In this document: positions 10,856 to 11,109 of the stretch, one piece after another | How the letters are laid out: each line of letters starts with the position of its first letter | Numbering within the stretch: position 1 is the first letter of the stretch | Assembly: GCF_016903815.1 (NCBI RefSeq) | Contig: NZ_CP069973.1 | Direction: 5' to 3' (one strand) | From: Escherichia coli | GTDB taxonomy: Bacteria; Pseudomonadota; Gammaproteobacteria; Enterobacterales; Enterobacteriaceae | Length of the DNA stretch: 64,000 nucleotides | Made by a program: the position numbers and the translations under genes | The notes under the pieces: generated by a model | What the model was told of the DNA's origin: nothing | The model's input: the letters and a program-made list of their open reading frames with translations, nothing else | Database searches by the model: none

Positions 10856-11109
10856 TTTGTTTTCTTTTCCATTCTCTGTGCAGGCAGCGATATAAATGAA
10901 AGGAATACTAAAAATGTTTTTATAGCGGGGCACTACATTAAAAGTAAAATAATTCAAATGAAATAATGTATATGCAATGTACTGGGAGAGTTTCGAGGTG
11001 AGTTTGTGTGGCAATATTTCAGGGAGAAAGTTTATCAGCCCGGTAACTATGTATGACCGGGCTGATTGCCAGATTCGGCGTAAAAGCCTTATCTGACCTA
11101 CAGTTAGCG

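Follow-up and report, generated by a model that had tools for sequence, protein, structure and literature searches.

A stable hairpin behind phoU in Escherichia coli is most likely a decayed inverted REP unit bordering the Z5211-Z5214-type islet

Gene content of the locus

The window analysed is a 64,000-nucleotide stretch of the Escherichia coli contig NZ_CP069973.1, and all positions refer to it. It carries phoU, yieH (3013-3678) and, between the two, a Z5211-Z5214-type islet, the gene annotation of which was taken from O157 and strain B20105. The features that concern us are listed in Table 1.

Table 1. Features between yieH and phoU in the window.
Feature	Position	Strand	Remarks
Z5211-Z5214-type islet	3679..11033	.	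Between the yieH stop and hairpin B; putative extent, by parsimony
espY4	3815-6268	-	Within islet
Pentapeptide-repeat gene	6529-7716	+	Within islet
espY5-like effector gene	8186-10705	-	Within islet
C-rich, G-poor tract, candidate rut region	10974..11033	-	A19 C21 G5 T15, C/G = 4.2; directly 3' of hairpin B
Hairpin B (hairpin of the original prediction)	11034..11066	-	11-bp perfect stem, 11-nt loop
REP A, y-type-like REP	11067..11103	-	5' GTAG motif (phoU strand); sequence CTGTAGGTCAGATAAGGCTTTTACGCCGAATCTGGCA
phoU	11110..11835	-	Stop codon 11110-11112; C-terminus ...LLAGKDPKE

A BLAST search of 5,426 complete E. coli genomes revealed two haplotypes at this locus. About 1,080 genomes match the entire 901-bp query; in these, yieH and phoU are separated by espY4, the pentapeptide-repeat gene and a type III effector-like gene. 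The remaining genomes, K-12, C and W included, match from position 11123 rightwards only and have bglG beside phoU. The phoU end of the window is 100% identical to that of E. coli 042 and many further strains. The bgl and Z5211-Z5214 genes were described as alternative islets by pst-phoU, at a locus without mobility functions or tRNA (Sankar et al., 2009; PMC2646131), and the window corresponds to the type III (Z-locus) haplotype of that study. A nucleotide-level description of the phoU-proximal junction, as given here, does not occur in the passages of Sankar et al. (2009) that we compared with.

The islet has a GC content of about 30%, while the two hairpins behind phoU together have about 52%, and the GC content steps from 48% to 33% exactly at hairpin B. 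A comparison of the islet edges (3660-3860 against 10930-11130) gave no common repeat beyond the shuffled expectation, with a longest word of 8 nt and no inverted match. No sign of an att site or a target-site duplication was seen at the islet edges.

The islet and its flank also vary within the haplotype. In the window, the espY5-like ORF is unbroken, with 839 aa from a TTG or 832 aa from an ATG at 10683 (as in sequences L108 and L116), and in O157:H7 (L002 6687-9172) it is broken into ORFs of 794 and 44 aa. Z5214 has been named espY5' (PMC4048457), and the split ORF of O157:H7 is consistent with this pseudogene label. In strain B20105 (L003 ~9470-10240) an IS1 has inserted 86 nt from hairpin B in the direction of the island, with its junction at about window position 10947; apart from this, the strain matches the window at 100% identity in this region, and a second IS1 disrupts its espY4. 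The 3' half of yieH was found to be only 80-90% identical in about 3,000 genomes, and its last codons differ by haplotype (...GWKITR* in the window versus ...GWDITA* in K-12). This suggests that the core gene yieH diverges along with the islet type, as an old, linked polymorphism.

Two adjacent hairpins follow phoU

Two hairpins lie side by side 3' of the phoU stop codon, REP A first and hairpin B second. The original prediction had described the latter as a 7-bp stem enclosing 10 nt. The inverted repeat is present, with GCCCGGT at 11038-11044 and ACCGGGC at 11056-11062, but 11 nt lie between the two and the pairing extends further: the arms ATCAGCCCGGT (11034-11044) and ACCGGGCTGAT (11056-11066) pair over 11 bp without a mismatch. 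Seven of these pairs are G-C, and the same arms were recovered independently by a repeat finder as I11. Hairpin B spans nucleotides 44-76 past the phoU stop codon, near the 45-70 bp given originally. As RNA, it is predicted to fold with -20.4 kcal/mol on the phoU (minus) strand and with -20.0 kcal/mol on the plus strand, with z-scores of -5.1 and -4.5, respectively, and none of 200 shuffled sequences was as stable. The existence of a stable predicted structure at this site was thereby confirmed. Perfect looped hairpins of at least 11 bp number four in the 64-kb window, hairpin B among them. Hairpin B is real and stable, yet ordinary in kind.

The stem of REP A starts 13 nt past the phoU stop codon and folds into 7+3 bp. 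REP A has the GTAG motif, the imperfect palindrome and the family consensus of a REP element, including the REP tail motif CTTATCTGACCTAC at 11088, and it aligns with REPs of Citrobacter and Enterobacter. The Rfam family naRNA4, which is derived from REP325, spans both hairpins with 33.4 bits and an E-value of 9e-5 (for a 151-nt stretch), a score that does not reach the gathering score of 59.5. Most of this score stems from REP A, the alignment of which to the first hairpin of naRNA4 has a high posterior probability. The Rfam search at permissive thresholds returned this sub-threshold match and noise, and nothing more. REPs located no more than about 15 nt from a stop codon are reportedly able to stall terminating ribosomes and lower expression. 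The level of PhoU could differ between the haplotypes, bgl-type strains being without REP A.

REPs are defined by a stem mismatch and by a tetranucleotide at the stem foot, GTAG or, on the inverted unit (the iREP), CTAC (Ton-Hoang et al., 2012; PMC3333891). Hairpin B resembles the REP/BIME family (y, z1, z2; REP325/naRNA4) in several respects. It is an extragenic palindromic stem-loop of 33 nt, within the 30-40 nt of a REP, between phoU and the espY5-like gene. It directly abuts the GTAG-bearing, y-like REP A, so that two GC-rich stem-loops in the 3' UTR follow the REP-linker-iREP order of a BIME, in which the units are inversely paired over a short linker, and the naRNA4 alignment covers both. 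It differs from the family in having TGAT where CTAC is expected (foot ACCGGGCTGAT versus ACCGGGCCTAC in Citrobacter), in its perfect stem, in a loop unlike REP loops and in being single-copy: REPs are a dispersed multicopy family, whereas hairpin B is present in one copy per genome. The window itself contains one match only, even with three mismatches allowed.

Canonical REPs are also present within the operon, in the pstA-pstB and pstS-pstC spacers (window ~12674-12707 and ~14608). The pstA-pstB spacer measures 182 bp in O157 (L002) versus 90 bp in B20105 (L003). This difference suggests that the number of REP/BIME copies varies in the operon.

The phoU end and the K-12 breakpoint

Originally, the boundary of the island had been estimated at 10.9-11.0 kb, and an alignment to K-12 was proposed for locating the breakpoint. 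Homology to K-12 stops inside phoU, at about 11121-11122 and within the last four codons. K-12 reads ...GGG AAA GAT/AGC GAC AAA TAA (GKDSDK*), whereas the window and O157 read ...GGA AAA GAC/CCG AAA GAG TAA (GKDPKE*). The differing phoU end comprises window positions 11110-11124 (codons 237-241), or 1488-1502 of sequence L001, and the sequences 3' of ~11121 are unrelated between K-12 and the window. The alignment therefore places the breakpoint at ~11121, outside the estimated 10.9-11.0 kb. K-12 lacks hairpin B entirely, and the hairpin falls on the variable side of the K-12 breakpoint, at a distance of about 55 bp. From the islet edge inferred by parsimony (at or below 11033, see below), the first estimate of the boundary is 30-130 bp away; it follows the drop in GC content and not homology.

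The GKDPKE ending of PhoU was found in Salmonella enterica and Enterobacter hormaechei (both LLAGKDPKE) and, from the DNA, in Citrobacter freundii and Klebsiella pneumoniae. Among the sequences compared, the GKDSDK ending is confined to bgl-type E. coli and Shigella. Because GKDPKE is common to four other genera, we take the phoU 3' end of the window to be ancestral and that of the bgl-type genomes to be derived, the K-12 bgl island having overwritten the original one. K-12 is for this reason the wrong reference for the border. No remnant of a displaced REP pair was found in K-12 between yidZ and phoU. The K-12 phoU-bglG spacer contains a hairpin, ACAAATCCCAATAA-N5-TTATTGGGATTTGT, with a free energy of -16.4 kcal/mol and about 10 nt past the phoU stop codon. 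It occupies the same place as the hairpins described here and, in the other haplotype, plausibly serves the same purpose, but it is unrelated in sequence, AT-rich, followed by a T/A-rich tail and part of the bgl island side.

Relatives without the islet

In Salmonella (L118) and Citrobacter (L122), phoU and yieH are convergent with no islet between them, and the spacers of 48 bp and 84 bp, respectively, consist of REP-type hairpins. The Citrobacter freundii spacer reads GTAGGCCGGATAAGCG..ATCCGGCA-ATTG-TCCGGTGGCGCAAGCTTACCGGGCCTAC, which is a REP-linker-iREP arrangement with GTAGGCCGGATAAGCGTTAGCGCTATCCGGCA as the whole first unit. Its counterpart in the window, GTAGGTCAGATAAGGC..ATCTGGCA-ATCA-GCCCGGTCATACATAGTTACCGGGCTGAT, is colinear. 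An alignment with MAFFT matched REP A to Citrobacter REP1, the linker ATCA to ATTG and hairpin B to REP2. Hairpin B and Citrobacter REP2 are identical at 21 of 33 positions; the arms are kept, and the loop and the CTAC foot have diverged. The Salmonella spacer contains TGCCCGGT-N13-ACCGGGCA, located 6 nt past the phoU stop codon and with the same stem core, GCCCGGT/ACCGGGC, as in the window; its loop is aagcgacagcgcc, and GCCTGTTTTCAG follows the stem. Enterobacter (L119) has two REPs at the equivalent place, followed by TTTGTTTTTCAG. Hairpin B is likely orthologous to Citrobacter REP2; the orthology falls short of proof because the identity is modest and REPs can recolonise a spacer independently.

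Klebsiella pneumoniae (L124, 3704-5726) has genes for a LamB-family sugar porin and an esterase behind phoU and in the same orientation. They are similar to bglH-yieL of the K-12 bgl island, with bglGFB missing. The hairpin behind the Klebsiella phoU stop codon is a different one, AT-rich and 17 bp long.

From these comparisons hairpin B is most likely a decayed iREP, the second unit of an ancestral, BIME-like REP pair in the phoU 3' UTR. In the ancestor, phoU and yieH would have converged over a short spacer of REP hairpins alone. The AT-rich Z5211-Z5214 islet would then have been inserted between the REP pair and yieH, leaving the pair attached to phoU, and hairpin B would afterwards have shed its REP hallmarks, with TGAT replacing CTAC, a diverged loop and a stem that is now a perfect 11 bp. 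By parsimony, the islet to the left of hairpin B would start at or below 11033. The proposal that the hairpin marks the border between core and island accordingly fails against K-12, but holds against the islet-free sites, where hairpin B is the last recognisable core-derived element.

An islet-free junction within Escherichia was sought with a synthetic query that joined the yieH 3' end, hairpin B and the phoU 3' end, run against E. coli. No such junction with hairpin B was found in the E. coli genomes, metagenome contigs and PhoU contexts searched. Three E. coli genomes have yieH near phoU. Two were considered as ancestral empty sites and rejected, since they encode the K-12-type PhoU and one retains a bglG remnant, which indicates secondary bgl deletions; the third carries an IS1 at the site. 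Two look-ups of PhoU clusters contained no E. albertii or E. fergusonii sequences among their members. A genome scan with the bare stem, CAGCCCGGT-N11-ACCGGGCTG, was discarded: the pattern is too unspecific and gave chance matches in unrelated, mostly high-GC genomes, with no Escherichia among 80 of the 104 stretches.

Distribution and conservation of hairpin B

Hairpin B is present in 1,106 of the 5,426 E. coli genomes, once in each and always at the same locus. All 30 metagenome contigs with hairpin B, found with a loop-tolerant, flank-specific pattern, were of the Z-type, as were all 10 contexts of this exact PhoU with hairpin B. Conservation was assessed in a panel of 10 distinct, independently sampled Z-type haplotypes, which were not chosen on their stems. 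One of the 33 positions of hairpin B is variable, and none of the 22 positions of its stem, compared with six of 37 in REP A and a spacer background of 18.6% variable sites (P about 0.01). The conservation of hairpin B is only suggestive, as the spacer contains other invariant runs, 38-39 nt in length. With an invariant stem, covariation analysis is impossible.

Hairpin B and transcription termination

Hairpin B has the GC-rich stem-loop of an intrinsic terminator and lacks the U-rich tract of 7-8 nt that should stand 3' of the stem (tail AAACUUUCUCCC). As it has no U-tract, it is not a canonical intrinsic terminator. The original prediction, that the phoU strand has no strong T-run and that the hairpin is at best a weak terminator, agrees with this: the sequence behind hairpin B is AAACTTTCTCCCTGA, and the stem is stable but the U-tract absent and the 11-nt loop outside the usual range. 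Hairpin B might nevertheless act as a weak intrinsic (Rho-independent) terminator of the pst-phoU operon. Such a role would be compatible with a GC-rich 3' UTR stem of -20 kcal/mol, with three T residues 4-6 nt past it and with the equivalent hairpins of Salmonella and Enterobacter, which are followed by TGTTTTCAG and TTTGTTTTTCAG, respectively. We consider it very doubtful, since the tail AAACTTTCTCCC opens with three A, the loop exceeds the usual 3-8 nt and a terminator consensus scan of the window leaves hairpin B uncalled. The T score of the tail is 0.38, compared with 3.5 for the Enterobacter REP that has TTGTTTTTCAG behind it. A d'Aubenton-Carafa-type discriminant, run with modern energy parameters, was about -53 for hairpin B, a value that is approximate and indicative only.

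Two other hairpins of the window have terminator-like features. The perfect 12-bp hairpin AAAAACCCGCCA-N11-TGGCGGGTTTTT at 1459-1493 is located between the convergent yieF-like gene (889-1455) and adeP (1509-2846). It has A/T runs on both sides and looks like a bidirectional intrinsic terminator, in contrast to the U-less phoU hairpin. The second, a small hairpin (TAGGGCTTTTACCCTG) at 10837-10852, has GTTTTTGTTT behind it on the plus strand, and the scan calls it terminator-like. It is part of an invariant run of 21 nt, located upstream of the start of the espY5-like gene by about 150 nt, and has no obvious plus-strand gene to terminate.

A C-rich tract downstream of hairpin B

Among all 60-nt windows of the 64 kb, the tract directly downstream of hairpin B (Table 1) ranks at the 99.8th percentile for its C/G ratio, and 13 YC dimers were counted in 78 nt. 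Rho-dependent transcripts end at stable U-less stem-loops that have C>G, rut-like sequence directly downstream and that protect against PNPase and RNase II (Dar and Sorek, 2018; PMC6061677). Hairpin B is likewise a U-less stem-loop of terminator-like energy with C>G sequence after it; the 3' ends of that study were mapped, whereas the one considered here is predicted. REP325 was described as a partly Rho-dependent terminator that also stabilises the upstream mRNA (bioRxiv 10.64898/2026.03.23.713779).

REP A and hairpin B on the pst-phoU mRNA would, by analogy, block 3'-to-5' exonucleases and define a stable 3' end. Rho would load on the C-rich tract, and termination would be mainly Rho-dependent and take place in the AT-rich DNA beyond. 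This would reduce read-through from the Pho-regulated operon into the espY5-like gene on the same strand, the probable start of which is the ATG at 10683. We infer that 3'-end protection and Rho-linked insulation are the likely function of hairpin B. Z5214 (espY5') was near-silent in most conditions in RNA-seq of EDL933 (PMC4048457). This is compatible with insulation, and H-NS silencing of the AT-rich DNA explains it equally well.

Alternative explanations for hairpin B

Hairpin B might simply be a functionless REP remnant in decay, with an invariance that reflects a young, clonal Z-type haplotype. It has lost CTAC and the stem mismatch and is presumably no longer a substrate of the REP transposase (features in PMC3333891), the other invariant runs of the spacer are equally long, and according to the 2026 preprint the effects of REPs depend on their context, with no general association of terminal REPs with longer mRNA half-lives. 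Neutral decay should, however, erode pairing, and the stem is perfect and extended to 11 bp; it is invariant (0/22) in the same panel in which REP A varies (6/37), and a strongly C-rich tract follows it directly. We therefore regard a purely neutral relic as rather unlikely. The confinement of hairpin B to Z-type genomes, with an island-side flank that is always the same, together with its modest identity to Citrobacter REP2 and a loop unrelated to REP loops, could also mean that it is the terminal sequence of the Z5211-Z5214 islet and resembles a REP by coincidence or convergence. An origin within the islet is clearly improbable: hairpin B lies on that side of the shift in base composition which faces phoU, shares with REP A a GC content unlike that of the islet, and abuts a bona fide REP in the order, orientation and short-linker arrangement of the Citrobacter pair. 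Its stem core is also identical to that of the Salmonella hairpin at the same position, and the islet edges have no repeat in common beyond chance.

Two further possibilities concern what the element might do. Binding of IHF, gyrase and Pol I to BIMEs has been reported (as background in PMC3333891 and PMC2817692), and with its position exactly at the GC step, hairpin B could act at the DNA level, as a cruciform or as an IHF, gyrase or H-NS boundary site at the edge of a silenced AT-rich islet. The linker of 0-4 nt is not the long linker of the IHF type and the sequence has no sign of protein binding, which leaves a DNA-level element with hardly any probability. REP A, hairpin B and the C-rich tract could also constitute a leaky Rho-dependent insulator, in which read-through from the strongly Pho-induced pst-phoU operon couples the espY5-like type III effector gene to phosphate starvation and the stem is selected to tune the leak; this we consider highly unlikely. 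The complete account preferred here, in which hairpin B is a decayed iREP, the islet was inserted beyond it and the hairpins serve 3'-end protection and Rho-dependent termination, appears to us reasonably probable as a whole.

Implications for the pst-phoU region

The analysis gives the nucleotide-level history of a textbook variable site and is of little importance beyond the locus. It makes a small addition to what is described for this site, in that the Z-type haplotype seems to have kept the ancestral PhoU C-terminus and the REP pair, while the bgl-type haplotype would have replaced the last four codons and all that lies downstream of them. K-12 is consequently not a neutral reference when breakpoints between core and island are called. 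If the Rho-dependent insulation proposed above is true, the locus would be a modest case of a pre-existing 3'-UTR element shielding a new virulence-type gene from a strong operon.
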